Below, piece after piece: positions 933-13,759 of a DNA stretch of 64,000 nucleotides. The notes beneath the pieces are model-generated. The model did not search any database. It was not told the DNA's origin and saw nothing but the letters and a program-made list of their open reading frames with translations. The DNA lies in contig CAVSBO010000003.1 in NCBI GenBank assembly GCA_963726195.1, forward strand, positions 852,089 to 916,088. Reading direction: 5' to 3'. A program made the position numbers and the translations under genes. Each line of letters opens with the position of its first letter. Within the stretch, counting starts at the first letter, position 1. The stretch is from Candidatus Thorarchaeota archaeon. GTDB taxonomy: Archaea; Asgardarchaeota; Thorarchaeia; Thorarchaeales; Thorarchaeaceae.

Positions 933-2138
933 CTACACGGGTTCTGAAATCTCGAAAGTAATGATGAAGTTTGCTCCAGAGGACACCTTCCCGGACACCC
1001 GATCTTGAACCTCAATTCTCGCGCCGTATTTGTGAACCATCTGTGCGACAAGTGCGAGACCCACGCCTCCAAAACGTTTGGCCCGGTCAAATAGCGACTT
1101 CTTCTTCTCGCCACTGATGCCAGGTCCATTGTCGGCTATAGAGAGCCTGAACCACTGTCCTTCTCTCTGCCCCGAAACCCACACTTGCTTGTCTTCCTTG
1201 GTGTTATGCCCAGCAGCATTCTCTAGAACGTTCCACAACAGCTCGCCAAGAAGAGAATCTGCCTTGACCCTCACGGGGGAGTCAAAGCCCTCAACGTGCA
1301 CCTTGGCTTCATAGACTCGCTCAAGAACCCCTATCTTCTCTTTTATTGCACTTGACAAGTCAACACTCGCATTAGGGATTCCCCTAATCTGACCTGCACG
1401 CTTTGTCTTGGTTATCAGTCGATTGCAGCGTTCCACAGCGTCGAGGATGTCATGCCTTGCGTCGTCGATGTATGATGGTGGCAGGTTCTGTTCAAGCAAT
1501 CCTGCTGACATCATTATGACCTGTAACTGGTTTGCTATGTCGTGCGTAATCAGATCAAGGTAGAACTGGACTGTTTCCTCTGCATCCTTTTGTTCTGATA
1601 TTTCCGTGATAACAGCGAACGAACCGACAAACTTGCCCTTAGAGTCGAAGTATGGTGCGGCCGCTATGATAGTTGGTACAACCTCTCCCCTGCGGTTCAC
1701 CCATTCCATCTCGTATCTCTCGGACTTGCCATCTTTGCGATTGCGAATTCTATCCTTAGCCATCTTGTGGTCCTTTTTCGTCGTTAACTCGACCCAGTTC
1801 TTTCCAACAAGCTCCGAGGGAGAGTAACCGAGCATTTTAGCGAAAGCATCGTTGGCATAGACTATCCTTTCATTCTCATCATCTATAGCCAACCCTTCTC
1901 TCATAGTCTCTATCAACAGACGGTATACAGACTCTGCATTCGCAAGTATTCCCTTGCCCGAGTCCTGGCCTGTGGCATCCTTGGATTTTACCAAAGTCAG
2001 CTTCGCCTCGCGAGAGTCTGCACATTCATGATGGACCCGAAACACACGTCCTAATCTTGTCTCGGGAAATGGGCTAATTGAGGTTATGCTGTTCGTCTTA
2101 CAATTCGGCCACTGTTTGACCATGAGAAACACCAGCAA
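933..2138 (-). CDS. PAS-domain sensor histidine kinase (true start probably ~1994)
   Basis: PAS signature IVYANDAFAKMLGYSPSELVGK; H-box LITHDIANQL; N-box NVLENA; DNGPGI and GGVGLALV G-boxes. Confidence 0.9.
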   Translation of the reverse strand: MLVFLMVKQWPNCKTNSITSISPFPETRLGRVFRVHHECADSREAKLTLVKSKDATGQDSGKGILANAESVYRLLIETMREGLAIDDENERIVYANDAFAKMLGYSPSELVGKNWVELTTKKDHKMAKDRIRNRKDGKSERYEMEWVNRRGEVVPTIIAAAPYFDSKGKFVGSFAVITEISEQKDAEETVQFYLDLITHDIANQLQVIMMSAGLLEQNLPPSYIDDARHDILDAVERCNRLITKTKRAGQIRGIPNASVDLSSAIKEKIGVLERVYEAKVHVEGFDSPVRVKADSLLGELLWNVLENAAGHNTKEDKQVWVSGQREGQWFRLSIADNGPGISGEKKKSLFDRAKRFGGVGLALVAQMVHKYGARIEVQDRVSGKVSSGANFIITFEISEPV

Positions 2139-2174
2139 ACCAAAGGACCTTAAACCAAGGTCAGAAGTTGCCTA

Positions 2175-2885
2175 GTGATGCACTCATCAGAATCGAATAC
2201 CGACAGACGATTGAGAATCAGCCATGGTCGCACTTGCAATTGCCCTCCGAATCACATCAACTGCCTGTCGGCCAAAGAGTGGATTCAGCATCAGATTGCT
2301 GTATGGGAGTTCTACTACGAGGCACGGGATGTGAGGGACAAGAACATTCATCCAGCGACCTATCCCATAGCACTTCCGTCAAAGTGCATATCTCTGTTCA
2401 CTCATAAGGGTGAACTGGTGCTGGACCCATTCGTCGGTGTGGGAACAACACTCGTCGCAGCCAGAGACCTCGCACGCAACGCAGTCGGGTTCGACCTAAA
2501 GGCGGACTATGTCGATTTCTCCAACAAGCGGCTGAGCTCTATGTCGGACAATGAGACAACGCAGATTGCATTGTGCGATGACGCTCATAACATACCTTCG
2601 TACCTTGAGGAGGAAACTGTTGCCGTCTGTGTGACATCTCCGCCCTATGCAAACCTCCTGAATCGCCGCAGACAGAACAAGAGTATGAGGGGCAATCTCA
2701 GGAAGGATGAATACTATCTCAAGGTACAGCAGTATTCTGACGATCCGAGGGATTTGGGCACCATGGATGCCGAGCCCTATGCGAAAACGCTAGGTGAAAT
2801 CTTCGGTGGCATTCTTCCTTTAATGCGACATAGAGCACACTGTCTTGTCAACATAACTGACTACTGGTGGGAAGACAGAAGGGTT
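2175..2885 (+). pseudogene. N4/N6 site-specific DNA methyltransferase, 5' part (237 codons), interrupted by the IS607-type element
   Basis: HPATYP, motif I DPFVGVGTT, motif IV TSPPY. Homology-like sequence stops at ...WWEDRRV and resumes at 11033. Confidence 0.9.
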
Positions 2886-2901
2886 GACAACAGCTGCCTA
2901 G

Positions 2902-2921
2902 AAGTTGGACAATCTTGGACA
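2902..2921 (+). repeat. Left subterminal repeat AAGTTGGACAATCTTGGACA (two TTGGACA units, 10-bp period)
   Basis: 19/20 identical to the reverse complement of 11000-11019. Confidence 0.9.
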
Positions 2922-2960
2922 CCACAGAACTGAAGAGCCGCAGCGCGACTGACACGATGC

Positions 2961-3587
2961 ATGTTGAGTGTGTCAGCAGCTGCGGTCAGGGTTGGGGTCT
3001 GTGCAAAAACCATCCGACGGTGGGACGACAGGGGTCTTCTCCGATGTTTCAGGACCCGAGGTGGTCACAGACGAGTGCCTCAGTCAGAAATTGAACGAGT
3101 CATCTCAGAAAGGGAGCCGAGAGCAGATTCTCATATGACCTGCTCAAGAGCAACAATCGTGTACGCACGAGTATCGTCCCACGGGCAGAAGGCCTCAGGT
3201 GACCTTGACAGACAGGTCGGCGAACTGCTCGCAAGTTCTGGCGAGGCATCTCCTCTTGTCCTCCCTGACGTCGGCTCCGGACTCAACATGAGGCGCAGGG
3301 GTCTATGGCAGCTGATACATGCTGCAGAGAGAGGACTCGTCAACCGGGTGATTGTCACTCACAGGGACAGACTGGCCCGCTTCGGGACCGAATTGATTGA
3401 GCATATCCTCTGCCTCCATGGCGTGGCCGTCAATGTCCTTCACGAGAACCGGGACATGACTCCTCAGGAAGAAGTGGTCGCCGATCTGATAGCACTAATT
3501 GCATCGTTCTCCGGACGTATCTATGGGCTTAGAGGTGCCATCCTCAGGGCCACAAGAGACCCGCTCAGACAAAGTTCTACTTCTTGA
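2961..3587 (+). CDS. tnpA: IS607-family serine transposase
   Basis: N-terminal MerR-like HTH (GVCAKTIRRWD...TRGGHRR), catalytic YARVSSHGQ, DVGSGLN, HRDRLARFG, C-terminal FSGRIYGLR. Confidence 0.95.
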   Translation: MLSVSAAAVRVGVCAKTIRRWDDRGLLRCFRTRGGHRRVPQSEIERVISEREPRADSHMTCSRATIVYARVSSHGQKASGDLDRQVGELLASSGEASPLVLPDVGSGLNMRRRGLWQLIHAAERGLVNRVIVTHRDRLARFGTELIEHILCLHGVAVNVLHENRDMTPQEEVVADLIALIASFSGRIYGLRGAILRATRDPLRQSSTS

Positions 3588-3590
3588 AAA

Positions 3591-3698
3591 GGGACGCGGT
3601 CCTCCTCACGATTTCTCTCCAGCCCCGGTGGAGAGACCGTGGGCTTCAAGCTGTTTCTCTACTGCGTTTTCGGTTTTTCCGTCTTGAAACCTTGCGTC
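3591..3698 (-). ncRNA. Candidate structured RNA or IS605-like right-end motif between converging tnpA and cargo gene
   Basis: Stems tctctcca/tggagaga (3614-3636), ctcacg/cgtggg, ttcaag/cttgaa and gacgc/gcgtc. Minus strand reads GAAGCCCACG...CGTGAGGAGG. Strand and function are inferred. Confidence 0.35.
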
Positions 3699-6600
3699 AC
3701 TCCTGATTTCCAGAAGCTGCACCCTGTTCATGAGCCTTCCGGACATCTCTAACCACATCAGGGACCTGCTTCCTCAATACCTCGCCAAGGTTCTCAATGC
3801 TCTGGAGTCGAGGCACTATTTCGAGCTCCACAGCCTCTCTTACTTCTCGCACCGCTTGTTGTACACCTTCGCCGAGCAGGATCTTCGGGTCATCATAGAG
3901 CATTCCCGATGCTGTACGAGTTCCATCGGTTTCTTCACTTACCCAATAGATTGCCTGATTCTGAGAATACAAGGTCACTGTCCACGTCGCTGGCTCCTCC
4001 GCGAACTCTTCATCATGGCGACCAAGGTGTGTTCCAGCATGATTCAGCCAAGATGTCACTCGCCTGATGAACTGCTGTTTGTTCCTTATGGAGAAACCGC
4101 TCATCTCGCCCTCTCTCATGCTTTCCCTTAGCATGTCTACGACTTCCTCGGCATCCTCTTCACTCTCAATCTCTATTGTCCGTGACAGGAGCGGCTCACG
4201 TCGACCCTGTCCGATAGGAAAGACAGCATATGTACAGCTTGTTTCAGACAGGTCAGAGAGCCGTAGTTCACAAGGTGGGCTTCTTGCCGAGTACCCATGT
4301 CCCTTGAGTTCTGACAGGATTCGCTTCCTGAGCGCTCCGTACTCCTCTATTGCATTCATTGGGATCCGGGACGTGATGACATTCAATATCCTCTGGCACT
4401 CTTTCTCCGCGCCGTGGCCGTGCACCAACTCGATTGTCTGGGGAGTTTCCGTAAGGAATAGTCCTGTGATTGTCGACTGTGCTTGCCACTCGACATACTT
4501 CGGCTCTGTACATGACAGGCCGACCAGCCAAGTCTGTTCTCTCACTCTCAGATAGGTTCCGGGCTCTAGAGGTTTCAATGACAGACCGTTCCTCCGAAGG
4601 AACATGCGGACGTACTGCTCCTCATGATACACCACGCTTTCATCTTCCCCAGAACCCTAGGCATGACGATGGCAAGTCTGTACAATCGCCCTGCATAGAC
4701 TCTCCCTGGGGCAAGGAGCCCATTCACAGCTTCTCCGGTCATCGGTCTTCCAAGCTGTCGCTTTACTTGATTAGGACAGTCTGGCGGCAATGATATCCGC
4801 CAGCAGGCACCGTGATCGTACTCCTCACTATAGGGCGATGGGACAGATCGACTGGTCATGTTCAATGCTCACCTTGAGGGTCCCGGCCTCTTCGAAGAAC
4901 CCGGACACTCGTGCAGGGAGTTCCTCCACCTCAGTTCGTGCAGCCTTGAAAGTGACATATGGTCCAATGAAATCCAGTTCTCCGTACACGATATCATCGA
5001 AGACACTCCAAGTGACGTACGTGCCCGAGTCTGTGTACATGGGTCCTGAGTTTGTCATAGGCCATCTGAGGAGTGAAATGAGTTCTGCCGTGTATTCCAC
5101 GTTCACCTCTTGGAGGATTTCATCATCGCCATCAACGAACCTAACTTGGCAGACATTATTCACCATCTCAAGACGCACACTGACAGATGCTGGTCGCGTG
5201 ACAGCCTCGATGTACCTACGCAGAGAGGCTGCCACACGTTGGTAGAACGACTCTGGTAGTTTCGTTCCTTGAGAAGCTTCAGTAACAGAGGGCTTAGTGA
5301 AGGACTGTCTTATGGCACGGAGATGACGGACTGATGAGTGCCCCTGTTCCACCAGCTCGAGGACTCCCGAGTAGACTCTCTCATGATCGTCCGTTTCCAT
5401 GCTCCATGTTTCCAGCCCCTGTTCAGTTGGTCTGAATTCCATTAGGACTTGTGAGGACCCGAGAATCTCGTCGGGTGTCTGTTGTGTTAGTACCTCTTGT
5501 TTGGTCTCACTCCAGAGGAGCCCCTCCTTGTCTGGAGACTTGCTCATGAAGCAACCAATGAGCATGCGGGCCTCATTCTCGGGGTCCTGCATGACAAGCC
5601 ACCAGGGAAGAGCAGTCTCATCCTCCGGTAGAAACCTGATTCCAAACGTCAGTCCAGCCGTCGTTCTTTCACTGGAAGTGACAAGCTCCACTGTCTTTGG
5701 AGGAAATGCAACAATGGTTCCTGGCCTTGTCTTCAACCTATTGGGTGAGCGGTAGAGCCGCTGGGAATTGATTCTACCCAGGGTCGTGGCCACGTACCCC
5801 TTGCCGGCCCCTGTCTCAGGGTGTCGGTAGCGCACAAGGTCAAGGACACTTGGAGTCTTGGCGGGAGGCCCATCAAGAACTCGTACTTCGAAAGTCAGGT
5901 CATCAGGGGCTCCTCTGAACTCATGCATGACTGCGTCGAACCGTTCCTTGATGCTCTCTTTCGAGTCATCTGAGAGCATCTTGTCAGGCCACAGGCAGAC
6001 AAGCCAAGGGAGCAAGGTCATCGAGAGGAGCCTTATCCTGCTGCGAGTAGCCTTGTCGGGTACGATGTCGTCCAGCCCTCTCTCCTGCACAACGAGTCCC
6101 TTCCCTTGGTTCTTGAACCGCCTTGACCAGCCCCTCAGCGGAGGTACGAGCACGAGCTCAGTGTTCATGTCTTCGGGAGAATGGCGAACGACTACTCGGA
6201 TATCATCATGCATTGGTGAGTCCCCGATGACTGGCAACCCACATTTCTCAGGCTCGACAGCATTCCTTGGTGCCACAGGTAGGTTCCAGACAATCTCAGT
6301 GACGACCTCAGCAAGAGATGAATTGTCATAGAATGGGAGAAGGGCTCTGGTTGCATATGGGACGGACTTCTCGGAAGAGGGCGTAGGTGCATCGAACCAC
6401 AGGACCGTCGTCTTCTTGTTGTCTGGAAGACTGTCCAGAAGCTGGTCCATTACGACCTGTAGTCTATCTCGGTGGCTCTCCGGAGTTGCATCTCGCAGGG
6501 TATCTGCCCCCGTCACGATGACTATTGTGTGGCTATTGATGCCCTTGTCCAGCTCGAACGATGGTATGTCTCCACCCTCATAGAGATATGATAGGATTTC

Positions 6601-8657
6601 GTCAAGGCGCCCTCTAACCTCTATGCCTTGAAAGAACTCTCGAATATGGTCTGGTTGCGTCTTCGCCACCTCGTCATCAGAGTATCCTCTTGGCCTTAGG
6701 CGAAGGCGTGCCTCTGCAAGGTGGGGCTCAGTGAACTGACTTGCAAGGTCAAACCAAACAAACCGTGCACCGAGGTGGCTCTCTTTCATCTCATAGAGCA
6801 TCTGAAGCCCATGATAGTTCCGTGCATTCCAGGCGGCGGACTGGCCTGCAGATGTCGGGGATCTCCCTACAAGATAGAGAATGAATCTTCGTCTGCTCTC
6901 TAGGCTCTGCTGGAACGGGTTGTAGAGTGGTTTCCACGGGACGTCAATAGCCTCTCCCCCCTGCTTCTCAGGAACGACTTGCTCATGAATGATCAGAGCG
7001 ACTCTGCTATTGCTTCCTCCAATAGGCCTGATGGCCGTTCTTTGAACTGCTCCACTCATCTTCTTGATGGATTCATAGGCCTTTACCAATAGCCCTTCAA
7101 TGGTTCGTCTGGCTTTATTGATATCAGTAATGGACTCGATGACTATCGTTCCTCTTGGCACGTACCTTGGCTCCAGCCCAGTGGCTTCATGGTATCTCTC
7201 AGCCAGCGCTTGTGCATAGACCTCTACTTGTCGCTGTGCAGATGCGCTGGGAGCGGATTTGACAATGGCGTCCCATTCTTTGTCCTCAAGAGTTCGGTCT
7301 TCAACGGGTAGCTCAGCAACAATACGGGGAGGAAGCCCTCTATGCAATCTGGACTCAGATGATTTCTCTTCAGCATCAATATGCCACTGATGCCCCATGC
7401 GGGTCTTGATCTCGCAGACGAATGCTGGTCTCCAGAGGATTTGTTTCCCGTCAGCTGTGATGATCCTCTCTAGAAGTAGAATGTCCACTTTTCCCAACCC
7501 GGACTCAGTCACTATCGCCAGCTCTGACACAATAGCATACTCAGAGGCCCCTACATACCTATGTCCATTGAAGATGACGTCATTCAGATGCCATGGGCTG
7601 GGAAAGAGGTCTGATATCCTTCTGTGCATTATCGACCCCTTTAGTTTCGCTCGACTGGTTGCCTGCTGTCTGATGTATTCGACATCAGCTTTGGTTAGGC
7701 ACGGTTCTTCAAGACCGGGCGTTCTAATGAAACCCCTCTGTGTCAGTCGTTCAAGCTCTTGAAGAGCAGGATGATTGCCATAGAATGTCAGTGCTTCGTC
7801 GAGCTGGCTCCGAAAGAAGTCGAAGGACGTATTGGATGCTCCATGTTCGAAGTCCCCCATCACGCTCTTGGCCGCTTGCATCGTGGGGTGATACCCGGAC
7901 TCTGAAATCAGCTCTTTCACTCTTCGAAGAGCAGCGTTCGCCCCCTTTCTGAACTCTGGTCTCCCACACTTGTGCTCTGAGTAGATGTATTCAAGATAAG
8001 GTCGTACAAGAAGGAGAAGGAGATTGCAGTACTTGGTGGTCTCGCTCACAGGCACATCACAGATTGTGCAGTAGGTGGCAAGATACTCACCATGACTCCG
8101 AGCAGCATCACCAAAGTCCATAGAGGGAAGGTCAGGATGCGTGAGCATGACTCGTGGCCCGAAGGAGGACCCCTCGTATCCTGCGACTCTAAACTCTTTT
8201 CTGTGAGATCCCGCTCGCACTGTACGTGTTCCAAATTGAGTGGCATCAGGAAATGGGAACTCTCTCTGTGAGAACTCTCTGAGGGTAGCACCACATGCAT
8301 TAAACCGCTGGTTCAGAGGACCCACAGTGCCATCAGGATTCTTCTGTCTGGAGACCTCAGTATGCCCAAATTCAGCAGCCTTCTCATAGAGCATCTTGAG
8401 CATGTTGTTCCTGATTTGAGGTTCAGCCTTGAGAACGGACGAGCAGTCAGGGGTACCTCGTTCCTTGCTCAGAAGATAGACGTGTCGAGTCTCTGCCAAA
8501 TCTCGTAGGAACTCCAGTAATGAGCACAGGTCAGTCTGTTCTTCATGCTACATTGGAGTTTCACCGTCGAGGCAAGCCCTGTCCGCAATGCAGCTGACAT
8601 GACACGTTCTGGATGAACGGGTAGTGGCCGAACAGGACGCCCTCTTGGCCTTGCCAT
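3697..8657 (-). CDS. Giant (~1650 aa) cargo protein with PD-(D/E)XK RecB/Cas4-like nuclease motifs; split into 4 ORFs by probable sequencing frameshifts
   Basis: Overlapping same-strand ORFs 8469-8657, 4828-8499, 4575-4865 and 3697-4635 join by single frameshifts. N-terminal RPRGRP (AT-hook), GKVDILLLE...VCEIKT...QVEVYA, then a degenerate P-loop-like segment. Confidence 0.7.
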
Positions 8658-8867
8658 CTCACTGATAGGATGGCATTGTGATATTTAAGTTCATTTTTTG
8701 GAAGTAACAGGCGCGGAACTCAGGTATCAAGAACTGGCTTGTTTCATAAAATCTGCCCCTTCTTCTTTATCAAACAAAAGGCTAACCTTTTACTCTGGTA
8801 ATTATACGTCGCTTGCTTTTGTATGCCCTTATATCCCGACTTCAGCACCAATATGCGGTAGAGGCTG
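8658..8867. promoter_or_regulatory. AT-rich divergent promoter region between cargo gene and tnpB
   Basis: Head-to-head genes; TATA-like atatttaa (8681-8688), taattata (8799-8806) and ttatat (8829-8834). Confidence 0.5.
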
Positions 8868-10999
8868 ATGAAGAGACAACCCCGGCGTCATCCCCGGGCG
8901 CCAAACCATGACGTACAACAGGCAAGGCAACAAACAATGGATGATAATTATACGTCCTCTTCATCCACTTACCAAGCCGAGAAGTTCTCTCTCAACTCAT
9001 ATCCTAGAATTGTCGATCGAAAGGGAAAGAAAAGACGACCTGACCCTTCCTTCTCCGCAACACACAGACCCCCCGTCGAACAAGCACTAAGGGAGCTTGT
9101 CAGCGGCAACAAGTGCTCTGACATCGATATCCAGACACTTGAGCAGCACTTCGACAAGTATCTCAATGCAGTCAATCTCGTACTTGATGAGGTATACTCT
9201 GCTTCCGATCGCGCCCAGCGTGTCGGAGAGCGATTGCGCTCTTCAAGAGGACAAGGCTATGTAGTACTAAGAGAAGAGAACTTTCTAGAATGGAAACCGG
9301 ACAACAGGTTCGGACAACTAGTCTATGAGCGAATGTATCGTAATGTCCTTGAGACCGCAGCCCGCATCGTGTTGGCTGACTACACGCGCAGGACACTGGT
9401 CAACTCACTAATCACGATGCTGGCGAGTGATAGGCAGCAACTCAAGTCGCTCATGGCTCTCAAACGAATCCCTGCTCCTCTTGTCAGAAAGCTGCGAGCG
9501 ACAGTCGGTGAAACATCTGGTTCGTACTATCACTACGCGCTCACGGCATGCAAACAGCTTCGAAGAGCACTCGATGAACACCTCCTTGAGAGCTTCGGCG
9601 AGTCCACATCCATCCGAAGACTAGCAAGGGACCGAGTTCGCGACCTTCTCGATACTCAATCGTCTGAATCAATCAAGGCCATGAATGCAACACTCAAGAA
9701 AGTGCAGAAATGGCACAAGACCGGTTTTCCATTCACTGCTCCCATTTTCAGACAAACCACCATGGACTTTACTGCATCTACTGAAAACACAACAGGACAA
9801 GGGTACTGGTTCATGGAGGACTCCGAGCGACAGGACGAGGTTATCCTGTATATCAAGACCCCTCCCGGGGTCACAGGTCGTCAAGCCACGCCTGATTCAC
9901 CGTACAAGAGCCAAACTCTTCGATTCAGGTTCCTCGACTGGTTGCCCCGAAAGGCAGCCCGTGCTCACAAAAAGGCAGAGGAGTCGAAAGCTCACGGTCA
10001 TTTCAGCAGGGCCGTGGAGTCTGAATATCGTGCTGCACGCTTTGACGATATGACCCAACAGCTGAGGAACAATGTCAGACTGCAGTGCCTGAATAGACAA
10101 CTTTCTTCTCTGAAGTCCAGAAAGGACATCGATGGAGAGAGGGTCAATGAACTGAAAGCCCAGATAACGGCGCTCAGACAGACCAGAAGGTGTGCCCCGC
10201 CCATCCTCAGTCTGCGAGGACACACTGCCACACTCATTATTCCCTTCCTATGCCCTGACAAACAGATGCTGAAACGAGTGCTGCCAACAGTCCCAAGGAC
10301 AGGCAGGGCAGGAGTCGACCGGGGTCTGAGATATCCGGTGGTCCTCTCAGTAAAGAACGGTGCAAACAGTATGATGAAACAAAGATAGGAAGGCCAGAGT
10401 CATTCGAGAGACGCGAGAGGCTCAGACAACGTACACGAGTCTTGATGTCACAGATCGTGCGACGACGGAACAACTGGGACAGGAAACGACCGATGCTGTC
10501 ACCTCCGTCCTCTATTCTGAAACGGGAGAGAGAGCTGGAGGCAGTGTGGGCCAAGGTCCGACGCATCGACCGAGAAATCTCCCATCAGCTGGCCGCTGAG
10601 ACCGTCTGGTTCTGTGAGCATCGTGGTGTCAAGACTGTCTACTTCGAAGACCTACGGTACTTCCAACCACAGGGCGGGTTCAAAACTCATTCATGGGAGC
10701 TGTCAACCAACCTCTGGGGGAAAATCATTGAAGGGGTCCGATATCGCAGACAGGCCCTAGGTCACAAGTACGGTGGAGTATGGACTGTGAACCCAGCCAT
10801 GACATCCCAGAGATGTAGTACCTGTGGTGAGAAAGGAGTGCGCGTCAGAGACAGTGATTCCACAGAGGAGGAGCACGGTGGGGAGTTCTTCTACTGCCCG
10901 AGCTGTGACCTCAAACTGCACGCAGACGTGAACGCGGCCAGAAACATCCTTATGATTCAACAACCCAAGCCCAGTGCCGTTTCTGGGCGGACTGCTTGA
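8868..10999 (+). CDS. tnpB: Oversized TnpB / Cas12-like RNA-guided RuvC nuclease (~690-710 aa; one frameshift near 10360-10370)
   Basis: RuvC-I GVDRG (D codon at 10317, residue ~484), RuvC-II YFEDL, VNPAMTSQRCSTCG...CPSC zinc finger, RuvC-III HADVNAARNI. ORFs 8868-10388 and 10442-10999 join via KQYDETKIGRPESF. Confidence 0.9.
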
Positions 11000-11019
11000 T
11001 GTCCAAGTTTGTCCAACTT
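11000..11019 (-). repeat. Right subterminal repeat, inverted relative to the left one
   Basis: TGTCCAAGTTTGTCCAACTT is the reverse complement of 2902-2921 with 1 mismatch. Confidence 0.9.
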
Positions 11020-11032
11020 ACAATGAACGGTT

Positions 11033-11206
11033 CCTGCTCACATGTATGTCATCAATGCATTGCAGGATGTAGGGTACGAACTCCGTAACATAATCATCTG
11101 GGACAGGCAGAACATAGTGAACCGTGCTGGCATCTTCGGGTGGCCCAACAATTACATCACTCTCAGCACGACCTTCGAGTACATTGTTGATTTCTGGCGT
11201 CCATGA
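11033..11206 (+). pseudogene. DNA methyltransferase, 3' part (57 codons) after the element
   Basis: PAHMYVINALQDVGYELRNIIIWDRQN...TTFEYIVDFWRP*: typical IIW..EYI MTase C-terminal motifs, in frame with 2175-2885 after excision. Confidence 0.9.
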
Positions 11207-11263
11207 TGAGCCTCGTCAGTGACAAGCCACAGGTCACATGATTTGATTGACATGACAGGATTC

Positions 11264-12342
11264 TCAGATTCCGAGAATGGGAAATACCAATTCCTTGACC
11301 TTTCGAACTGTTTCGCGCACGGTCATCCATATTTCTGCATCATCCTTGAAAGGCGGCTTTTGCTTGGGAGGAGAATACTTGCGACCTGACAAGCACGGAT
11401 ATGACCGTGGCCACACCCCAGCACAAAGAGTCTGGATGGTACCCTCCGCCCGTCACTACTCCAAGTCGACCGTCACTCCACTTGTGTGCTGCATTGTGTA
11501 TTCTCTCTGCGATGTATCTTATCATCGTCGTCGTCAGTTTGAGGTGCGCTAGGCGATCCAGGTAATGTGCATCAAAGCCGGGCAGAAACAGGATGAACTG
11601 AGGACGAAAGAAATCGACCAGCTTCGGGACCAGCTCGTCAAAGGCATATCTGTATACTCCATCGCCCGCGTCCATCGGAAATGGCATATTGATGTTGTAG
11701 CCGGAGCCACGACCAGAACCGACCTCGTTCACGTACCCTTCGTGAGGGTACATCCATTCAGGATCCTCATGGAAAGAGATGACCATGACCTCCGGATCGT
11801 CGTAGAAGTACGCTTGGTCCCCATTTCCGTGGTGGACATCGAAATCCGCGACAAGTATTCGATTCAGACCATTCTGTTTGAGCTCGCTAACAGCGGCCGC
11901 GATATCATTGAAAACACAGAAGCCACCACCCTTATCGAACTTGGCGTGATGAAAGCCGCCGGTGGGAGACATAAAGTGCTCCACGCGTCCCGACATGATT
12001 GAGTGGACTCCAGTGACGGTAGCACCGGACAAAACTAGAGCATTCTCGTATATTCCTCTGAAACCCGGCGTGTCTATGTCAATCTCACCTTGGCCGGTCT
12101 CAGAAATCGTTCTGACCTTCTCAATGTATTCGGAGGAATGCACGCGCTCGAGAATGGGCACAGGAAGAGACTCTGCTTGTCAGCTCAGTTACGTTCTGAG
12201 ATGCAAGCAGCCCGGCCGAATCCAAGAAATCCCTGATCATTCTGAAACGCCCGGGTCTCAATGGGTGCCGGTCACCATAGTCAAAACTGTCGAAGACCGG
12301 GCTCCACATGAAGCCGACTTGGCAGTCTCTCCTCGGGATCAC
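11264..12342 (-). CDS. Histone deacetylase / AcuC-family deacetylase (two frameshifts)
   Basis: HPLRPGRF, GGFHHA, GGFCVFND, DFDVHHGNG, GFDAHYLD, GGGY. Confidence 0.9.
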
Positions 12343-12454
12343 ACACCGCCACCATTCCAGCTTTTGGTAAGCTTCGGAATCACGCGTACTAATGGATGCC
12401 GATTTGAGTGTCAGTGTTGTGTGACGCAAACGGAATGTTAGTGCCTAAATTGCA

Positions 12455-13564
12455 CTACCCGTTAGGTGCAATTACCGCCTTGACCGAAATCAGCTTCTCT
12501 TGAGCTTCCAGTGCCTTCTGCGCATCGCGAAGCGGGAACCGATGAGTGACAATCTTCTCGAATGGGAACCGATCGTAGTTTTCAGCAATGGTCTTGATGG
12601 CCCTGTAGACATGAATTGTTTCCGTGCCCCAGACTGTTCTGATGTCCAAGTGCTTTCGATTCATCAGGTGCGGTCTCACCTCCACAGTCCCGCTGTCAGT
12701 GTACTGGCCACAAATCGTGTACGTGCCACCCTCACGCACAAGTTCTATTCCCTCTGGAATGGCTTTGGCGGCGCCAGTCGCCTCATAGACTATGTCAGGC
12801 CCATGACCATTCGTAATATCTCGAAGGAAGCTCTTCCGGTCTTCGAGAGTGCCCTCACGTATGTTGAGGGTGTGGGTAGCTCCGAACTGTTCTGCAAGCT
12901 CCAGACGGTTTGGAGCCTGATCAATCGACGTGACTGTCCTAGCCCCATTCACCTTGGCGATCATCGCAATCATTAGGCCAACTGGTCCAGCGCCCTGTAC
13001 TGCAACATTGGCTCCCCATGTGAGTGGGCTCCTAGTGGCGGCGTGCACCGCAGTCGGCAGGGCGCAACCTGCTGATATTGCCCCATTGAAACTCACATTC
13101 TCAGGAATGCTCATCATGTGAGTGCCAGGCGTGAGGTACATGTACTCACTGTAGCCTCCAATCAGGAACGGGAACTTACTCGAGTCACGCGTTATTCCGT
13201 AGACCTCTCGATTGGGGCACTTGGTTGGCGCCTTGGCGACAAGACAATTCCAGCAAGAGTAACAGGTTTTCGTGACATCGTGAAACGTGACCCTATCGCC
13301 AATCTCTATCTGCCGACCATCAAGATCCCTGATTTGTCCGGAGCCCATGTCCTCGACGGTCCCTACTACCTCATGACCGAGTATGAGTGGATAGGGTACG
13401 CCGGTGAGCTTTCCATGCCAGAGATGAACATCGGTGCCGCAGACACCAGCGTTTGCAACTTTCAACAAGATGGAACCCGGTACAAGCTCGGGAATCTCAA
13501 AGTCCTTGATAATAAGAGGGTCATTGGGTTTGGGTACTACTGCCGCTTTGCTGTGACGAGTCAT
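12455..13564 (-). CDS. Zinc-dependent alcohol dehydrogenase (MDR family)
   Basis: GVCGTD, GHEVVG, CxxCxxC...C structural Zn site, GAGPVG. Confidence 0.92.
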   Translation of the reverse strand: MTRHSKAAVVPKPNDPLIIKDFEIPELVPGSILLKVANAGVCGTDVHLWHGKLTGVPYPLILGHEVVGTVEDMGSGQIRDLDGRQIEIGDRVTFHDVTKTCYSCWNCLVAKAPTKCPNREVYGITRDSSKFPFLIGGYSEYMYLTPGTHMMSIPENVSFNGAISAGCALPTAVHAATRSPLTWGANVAVQGAGPVGLMIAMIAKVNGARTVTSIDQAPNRLELAEQFGATHTLNIREGTLEDRKSFLRDITNGHGPDIVYEATGAAKAIPEGIELVREGGTYTICGQYTDSGTVEVRPHLMNRKHLDIRTVWGTETIHVYRAIKTIAENYDRFPFEKIVTHRFPLRDAQKALEAQEKLISVKAVIAPNG

Positions 13565-13759
13565 ACAATCACTGCTTGCAGTCTTCGCAATCGACCCTAA
13601 TATAACGCCTATTATTTGACACATACCAACTTCGCGGGCACAACAATGCAGACACGGCATAGTTCCGTTTGCGTGACACGGTACATTCTCACTTAACGAT
13701 AGTTTTATAAGGTACTAAGCAGACCAATTAGTGATTAACAATAGTTAGGAGAGCACCAT

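Follow-up and report, generated by a model that had tools for sequence, protein, structure and literature searches.

A giant, probably decayed gene paired with tnpB in an IS607-type element of a Thorarchaeota genome, with likely Cas1-like and Cas4/RecB-like domains

What does a gene of ~1,652 codons do between a serine recombinase gene and a gene for a TnpB-like protein, and is it still alive? The question is raised by a stretch of 64,000 nucleotides from a Candidatus Thorarchaeota archaeon (GenBank assembly GCA_963726195.1, contig CAVSBO010000003.1, positions 852,089 to 916,088; hereafter the window), which carries the giant gene on the minus strand at 8657..3697. The best overall explanation, given a probability of about 0.6, is that this copy has decayed, that the gene is a fixed part of an IS607-family transposon, and that its product serves as an accessory DNA processor with TnpB. 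The gene joins a likely Cas1-like domain to a nuclease of the Cas4/RecB type and to a RecA-like domain that is inactive.

The giant gene is spread over four overlapping open frames, 8657-8469, 8547-4828 (1,239 amino acids (aa), P0001), 4868-4575 and 4656-3697. A tblastn search with the intact homologue P0008 (1,566 aa) followed a path through frames 3>2>3>2, with breaks at ~8493/8487, 4831/4817 and 4653. Indels were read from the assembly sequence against homologues. Three changes of 1 nt were located: a deletion at 8487..8493 and an insertion at 4817..4831, both outside homopolymers, and a deletion at 4650..4656, the sole one of the three sitting in a short run (of T or G). In the correct-frame segments all catalytic residues were intact and internal stops numbered 0. 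A previous sequence-only reading of this DNA had placed one multidomain gene, not four, at these coordinates and on this strand, and this was right. Homologues of 1,550-1,690 aa align with it colinearly from end to end. The first frame, of 62 aa (MARPRGRPVRPLPVHPERV...), aligned with the N-termini of intact relatives, and therefore its AT-hook-like start, MARPRGRP (8634..8657, minus strand), belongs to the giant protein. Homologous segments in relatives read MKRKRGRPVLPLP and MPRRRGRPARPLP. The AT-hook-like start had already been picked out in the previous reading; among the ~50 cluster representatives with the N-terminal segment, 43-49 retain the RGRP core.

The frameshifts could be errors of assembly or consensus, in which case the gene would be intact in the organism. 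The source is a 2.9 Mb assembly in 19 contigs with a completeness of 88.9%, frameshifts 2 and 3 cancel out across ~170 nt, and site 3 lies in a short homopolymer; the intact catalytic residues and the lack of in-frame stops also favour this explanation. Against it, sites 1 and 2 lie outside homopolymers. The assembly contains 33 open frames of at least 1,000 aa, the longest of 2,612 aa, and their persistence rules out a general error rate of 3 indels per 5 kb. The adjoining TnpB gene was broken too, as were two of the three other giant-gene copies in the genome; the third was intact (1,708 aa, locus L007). Broken copies are the usual fate of transposon copies. A search of related genomes found none with the same DNA, against which the indels could be cross-checked. 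Assembly error was judged quite unlikely, and the three indels are, with high confidence, real decay. Since the catalytic residues are intact and the correct frames have no stops, the inactivation would be recent, and the window copy was probably inactivated by these three 1-nt frameshifts. Judged by their reading frames, the giant gene and the TnpB gene of the window are both dead and only tnpA is intact. The proposal of the previous reading to polish the three indels is probably unjustified, because the frameshifts look like true decay. That reading had also considered that the four frames might be separate or decayed genes: decay by frameshift was found, and separate genes were not.

The partner gene lies on the plus strand at 8868..10999, divergent from the giant gene. 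It encodes an oversized TnpB-like protein in two frames, of 506 aa (8868-10388) and 185 aa (10442-10999), a break that had been overlooked. The intact partner has ~700 aa with a C-terminal Cas12f1-like TNB domain, and an intact 722-aa version was found at L007:9000-11168.

These genes are carried by an 8,147-bp IS607-type element at 2885..11031, in the order left end, tnpA, giant gene (reverse strand), TnpB gene and right end. The left end (2885..2924, plus strand; inverted repeat I2) has two TTGGACA repeats. It is followed by tnpA (2961..3587, plus strand), which encodes a MerR-type helix-turn-helix (HTH) and a serine recombinase and occurs just once in the genome. The right end (10997..11031, plus strand) reads TGTCCAAGTTTGTCCAACTTACAATGAACGGT, followed by host sequence. 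The window contained only two matches to TGTCCAANNTTGTCCAAC, at 2904-2921 and 11000-11017; they are inverted and bound all three genes. The host junctions (slash at the boundary) are ...AGGGT/TGACAAC... and ...ATGAACGGT/TCCTGC. The element splits a DNA methylase gene (N6_N4_Mtase) into 2175-2884 and 11032-11206, and deletion of 2885-11031 restores a 294-aa methylase frame (...EDRRV/PAHMYVINAL...). The insertion is seamless: GGT stands at either junction and the target is not duplicated, which argues that the serine recombinase, not the giant protein, moved the element.

The same junctions were seen elsewhere in the genome. A copy on another contig (L009), 87.6% identical over 7.6 kb to the intact copy at L007, has the same left end as the window element and no tnpA. 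It splits a short-chain dehydrogenase (SDR) gene seamlessly, with a restorable frame and GGT at both junctions. About eight miniature elements of ~190 bp consist of left and right ends only; their left ends abut host GGGT, their right ends finish in AACGGT, and the junctions (ACCC/GGT) are as in the element. Such loci, resembling miniature inverted-repeat transposable elements (MITE-like), are at G000:C10:39231-39385, C15:89080-89234, C16:77297-77448, C18:4292-4446, C3:337144-337703 and C4:111654-111805. Several solo right ends also abut GGT. The L007 copy (G000:C16) has the right end and, at L007:3480-3700, is without the 28-nt left-end repeat of L009 and the window; it has perhaps lost its mobility. 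Directly next to it is a truncated histone-deacetylase gene. Genes of the histone-deacetylase family adjoin the element at two loci, the window (11340-12179, minus strand) and L007:2793-3629, and this neighbourhood may be coincidental or preferred.

IS607 elements insert at (G)GG, have GG at their termini, make no target duplication and need only TnpA (Chen et al., 2018, PMC6188088). By its sequence features the carrier is an IS607-family element: its recombinase is of the MerR-HTH serine type, its TnpB gene stands at the right end, its target is GG and no duplication is made. It shares short end repeats with IS607 and IS1535 as well (PMC6188088). It differs from them in its 5-kb third gene, on the opposite strand between tnpA and tnpB, in a TnpB ~300 aa longer than usual, and in subterminal repeats that form a 23-nt imperfect inverted repeat. 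The previous reading had taken the giant gene for a passenger of an IS607-like, TnpB-carrying element, and this was supported. Two flanking 401-aa open frames, 933-2138 and 12455-13660, were considered as TnpBs and rejected; they encode a PAS histidine kinase and a zinc dehydrogenase instead. Aloposons (Wu et al., 2022) were also considered and set aside: they have tandem genes for 3,000-6,000 aa, integrate at tRNA sites and carry no TnpB, unlike the window element.

Relatives of the giant protein were collected to define its conserved parts. A word-indexed search gave 52 relatives, most of 1,550-1,690 aa; all those with a named source were hypothetical proteins of Candidatus Thorarchaeota, and none of the 52 contained a Pfam domain. 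A profile search of 1.84 billion representatives gave 194 clusters. When 201 genomes sampled from the phylum were scanned with the profile, matches came from the window's own family (28 of 43 genomes) and from one other family (1 of 7), with none elsewhere. The gene is mostly multi-copy per genome, and most matches lie in open frames of 1,400-1,900 aa. Neither the pieces nor intact homologues had a match above noise in scans with Pfam, NCBIfam and PADLOC models, and a profile search of PDB sequences gave no match. Conservation was counted over ~150 clusters at 50% identity, and AlphaFold2 models were built on 40-sequence alignments.

The most conserved part of the giant protein is a helical domain at its N-terminal side (P0001 residues ~1-216; 7900..8547, minus strand). 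The N-terminal model (P0001 1-530) had a mean predicted local distance difference test score (pLDDT) of 79, and with moderate support its helical domain matched the catalytic alpha-helical domain of Cas1 integrases and casposases (PDB 4n06, 4w8k, 6opm). E79, N116, G123, H174, D181 and D184 (P0008 numbering) were 97-100% conserved, with H174 kept in 147/147 clusters, D181 in 146/148 and D184 in 144/148. The conserved residues of the window copy are E42, N79, G86, H137, D144 and D147, and the H/D/D codons fall at 8139-8107. In a comparison of 100 N-terminal domains of the family with 30 Asgard Cas1 proteins, hhalign paired E79, N116, G123, D181 and D184 with Cas1 E, N, G, D and E, that is, with the catalytic E, the N..G helix and the D..E pair, at a weak score (P ~0.07). 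The G-P-x5-H spacing ahead of the D/D pair resembles P-xx-GFLH of Cas1, and the E, N..G, P..H and D..D motifs of the family stand in the same order as in Cas1.

Several differences from Cas1 were found. Only ~57 residues precede the helical domain, and the N-terminal beta domain of canonical Cas1 is absent. The domain is part of a fusion with three others, and the locus has no Cas2 or CRISPR array; no tandem or spaced repeat array was found within 2000-12500. Canonical Cas1 (PF01867) was not found in a search of this genome. The similarity of the family to Cas1 was undetectable by HMMER and marginal by comparison of hidden Markov models (HMM-HMM). A Foldseek search of the pdb with the N-terminal model gave nothing significant, and an ESM-Atlas feature search with the Cas1-like part gave no usable match. 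Homology of the N-terminal domain to Cas1 was nevertheless considered probable. The previous reading had missed this domain, which ties the gene to published aCas1-TnpB loci, so that the protein is not of an unknown class.

The second domain (P0001 residues ~285-525; 6973..7695, minus strand) is a PD-(D/E)xK nuclease of the RecB/Cas4 type. Its motifs are D355, E379-x-K381 (E379-I-K381) and Q440-xxx-Y444 (codons 7485-7216). The D was kept in 149/149 clusters, E/D in 150/150, K in 150/150, Q in 149/149 and Y in 148/148, and as a pattern across homologues this agreement is far beyond chance. The model has a restriction-endonuclease-like alpha/beta core fold, and an Atlas shape search with the domain returned PD-(D/E)xK families exclusively. 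The assignment, made in the previous reading from the D, ExK and QxxxY motifs, is solid. Both the D...(D/E)xK...QxxxY motif set and the core fold are shared with Cas4/RecB-family nucleases (PDB 7mi4, 8d3l). No invariant or near-invariant Cys was present in this region among 38-40 aligned homologues. Because the conserved cysteines are absent, the nuclease is RecB-like and not a true Fe-S Cas4, which has a conserved four-cysteine cluster. Its position after the Cas1-like domain is the reverse of the order in the Cas4-Cas1 fusion 7mi4.

The third domain (5971..6903, minus strand) resembles RecA, Rad51 paralogues and KaiC. The second model (P0001 520-1239, pLDDT 71) has a RecA core at model residues 30-340, of which ILYLVG, FVWFDL and IVIVTG form strands, and Foldseek matched it to RAD51C-XRCC3 (E 2e-5). 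The degenerate Walker A of the window copy reads SPTSAGQS and does not fit GxxxxGK[ST]. Its Lys position is occupied by Gln, and Lys was found in only 20 of 149 clusters; the Walker-B Asp is conserved. An eroded P-loop domain had been suspected at this place in the previous reading, and the modelled fold and the mostly lost Lys agree with it. The RecA core and Walker-B Asp are shared with RecA-superfamily pseudo-ATPases (Rad51 paralogues, RadB, KaiC-like proteins and Elp4/5/6); the loss of the Walker-A Lys in most family members and the setting within a 1,650-aa fusion are not. A conserved beta-rich region follows (P0001 residues ~964-1199, model residues 445-680; 4951..5658, minus strand; pLDDT ~80-90). 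It gave no specific fold match, the RecA domain having filled the hit lists so that the region was barely tested, and an ESM-Atlas feature search with the C-terminal beta region gave no usable match. The acidic C-terminal tail (3697..4653, minus strand) is variable and colinear with homologues, and no known domain matched it.

Diverged Cas1-like proteins next to TnpB have been described before. Altae-Tran et al. (2023, PMC10691335) reported aCas1-associated TnpBs in two Asgard groups, Cas1H-Asgard-1 and -2, and proposed that aCas1 stands in for the serine or Y1 recombinase and likely acts as the transposase. Koonin and Makarova (2022) noted diverse Asgard Cas1 homologues possibly tied to new mobile elements. 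The giant family is most likely the published 'aCas1' partner of Asgard TnpBs, on the basis of Asgard origin, TnpB pairing and fold; the first two of these belong to the published description and were both found. aCas1 itself was reportedly first described by Makarova and colleagues in the CRISPR Journal in 2020. The gene pairing is thus already catalogued in the literature. The window locus resembles the published loci (PMC10691335) in its Thorarchaeota lineage, in the adjacency of a diverged Cas1-like protein and TnpB, and in being repeat-flanked, mobile and free of a CRISPR array. It differs in that the pair is enclosed by a complete IS607-type element, which encodes a serine recombinase of its own and has seamless GG(T) junctions, in that the copy is a pseudogene, and in the motif GTTCACTCA, which is reported downstream of aCas1-linked tnpB and was not found beside tnpB at any locus examined here.

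Pairing was inspected at the four copies in this genome and at loci L010-L012 and L055-L057 of other genomes. The giant gene stood divergently beside a gene for a TnpB-like protein of 690-740 aa at every one, and the pairing with one oversized TnpB clade persisted across giant-gene paralogues of 22-29% identity. The three-gene layout with all genes intact was found at L055, L056 and L057, in three Thorarchaeota genomes of other genera, and coordinates indicated at least three more such loci. The two-gene copies that lack tnpA occupy unrelated sites, for example between nusA and rpsL, and in other genomes they keep the right-end motif ACAATGAACG(G/A)T. At L012, the two-gene element between nusA and rpsL has the 8-mer TTCATAAT beside both presumed ends (5740-5760 and 13110-13125), and this repeat could be a target duplication or chance.

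These loci bear on the rival explanation, as proposed in PMC10691335, of a distinct aCas1-TnpB family that has the giant Cas1-like protein as its transposase or integrase; TnpA would then be secondary. A Cas1/casposase-like fold with invariant catalytic-type residues and intact two-gene copies without tnpA at many sites would suit it, and the 8-nt direct repeat at L012 can be counted on its side. Integration of the Cas1 type, as in casposons, leaves target duplications. By contrast, this genome has two independent insertions that share GGT, are seamless and show no duplication, the signature of an IS607 serine recombinase, and the miniature end-only elements have the same junctions. The right-end motif is conserved in the tnpA-less copies, and tnpA accompanies the pair in the window and at the three intact loci of other genera. 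A transposase role for the giant protein was considered unlikely on this evidence. Some results pull away from the explanation given at the outset. Pfam and NCBIfam gave no match to the Cas1-like domain, and the weak hhalign score (20.3) was reached by 6 of 150 column shuffles. Most copies in other genomes have no tnpA beside them, and such copies fit the published idea that aCas1 itself mobilises the pair.

The giant protein might also be a stand-alone cargo, such as a defence nuclease or toxin, functionally unrelated to TnpB. It has two nuclease-type active sites, mobile elements often bear defence cargo, and IS607-type (Ser-3) TnpB elements occasionally carry cargo genes (Altae-Tran et al., PMC10691335). 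This would leave the fixed divergent pairing with one oversized TnpB clade, kept even among paralogues 22-29% identical, to be accounted for; multiple copies within genomes are better suited to an element function than to a host-benefit cargo, and no PADLOC, Pfam or NCBIfam model matched. An unrelated cargo was considered very doubtful. The previous reading had offered resection of TnpB cuts, an antiviral nuclease or a toxin as possible functions.

Our best guess is that the giant protein is a DNA-end-processing or recombination accessory of TnpB. From its start it would comprise an AT-hook, a probable Cas1-like helical domain, a PD-(D/E)xK nuclease without Fe-S, a degenerate RecA-like domain, a beta-rich region and an acidic tail. 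Elements of this kind insert seamlessly at (G)GGT, which points to the serine recombinase as the enzyme that moved them. In the proposed mechanism, the giant protein would act as an accessory DNA-processing enzyme together with the divergently transcribed TnpB. Its Cas1-like and Cas4-like sites may cut or trim DNA ends or branched DNA, and the RecA-like pseudo-ATPase may bind DNA or mediate assembly. The likely substrate would be the break made by TnpB at the emptied donor site, after which recombination would restore the element.

Among archaea, the Asgard lineage is the one most closely related to eukaryotes. Cas12 descends from TnpB, and the adaptation enzymes of CRISPR systems include Cas1 and Cas4. 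A Cas1-like/Cas4-like fusion tied to TnpB without a CRISPR array would be a natural system in which the cooperation of these parts can be studied. To the published family the window adds that an ordinary IS607-type element carries the pair along with a serine recombinase; the seamless junctions at GG(T), the miniature elements and the recombinase encoded beside the pair argue against the giant protein as transposase. The intact copies at L055-L057 and the L007 paralogue are better experimental material than the dead window copy. More tentatively, the giant protein is possibly a TnpB-coupled machine for DNA capture or break processing on an IS607 element, and not a transposase. If so, it would be an array-less adaptation-type module (Cas1 + Cas4) allied with a Cas12 ancestor, and a living model of the first cooperation between TnpB transposons and Cas1-type integrases.

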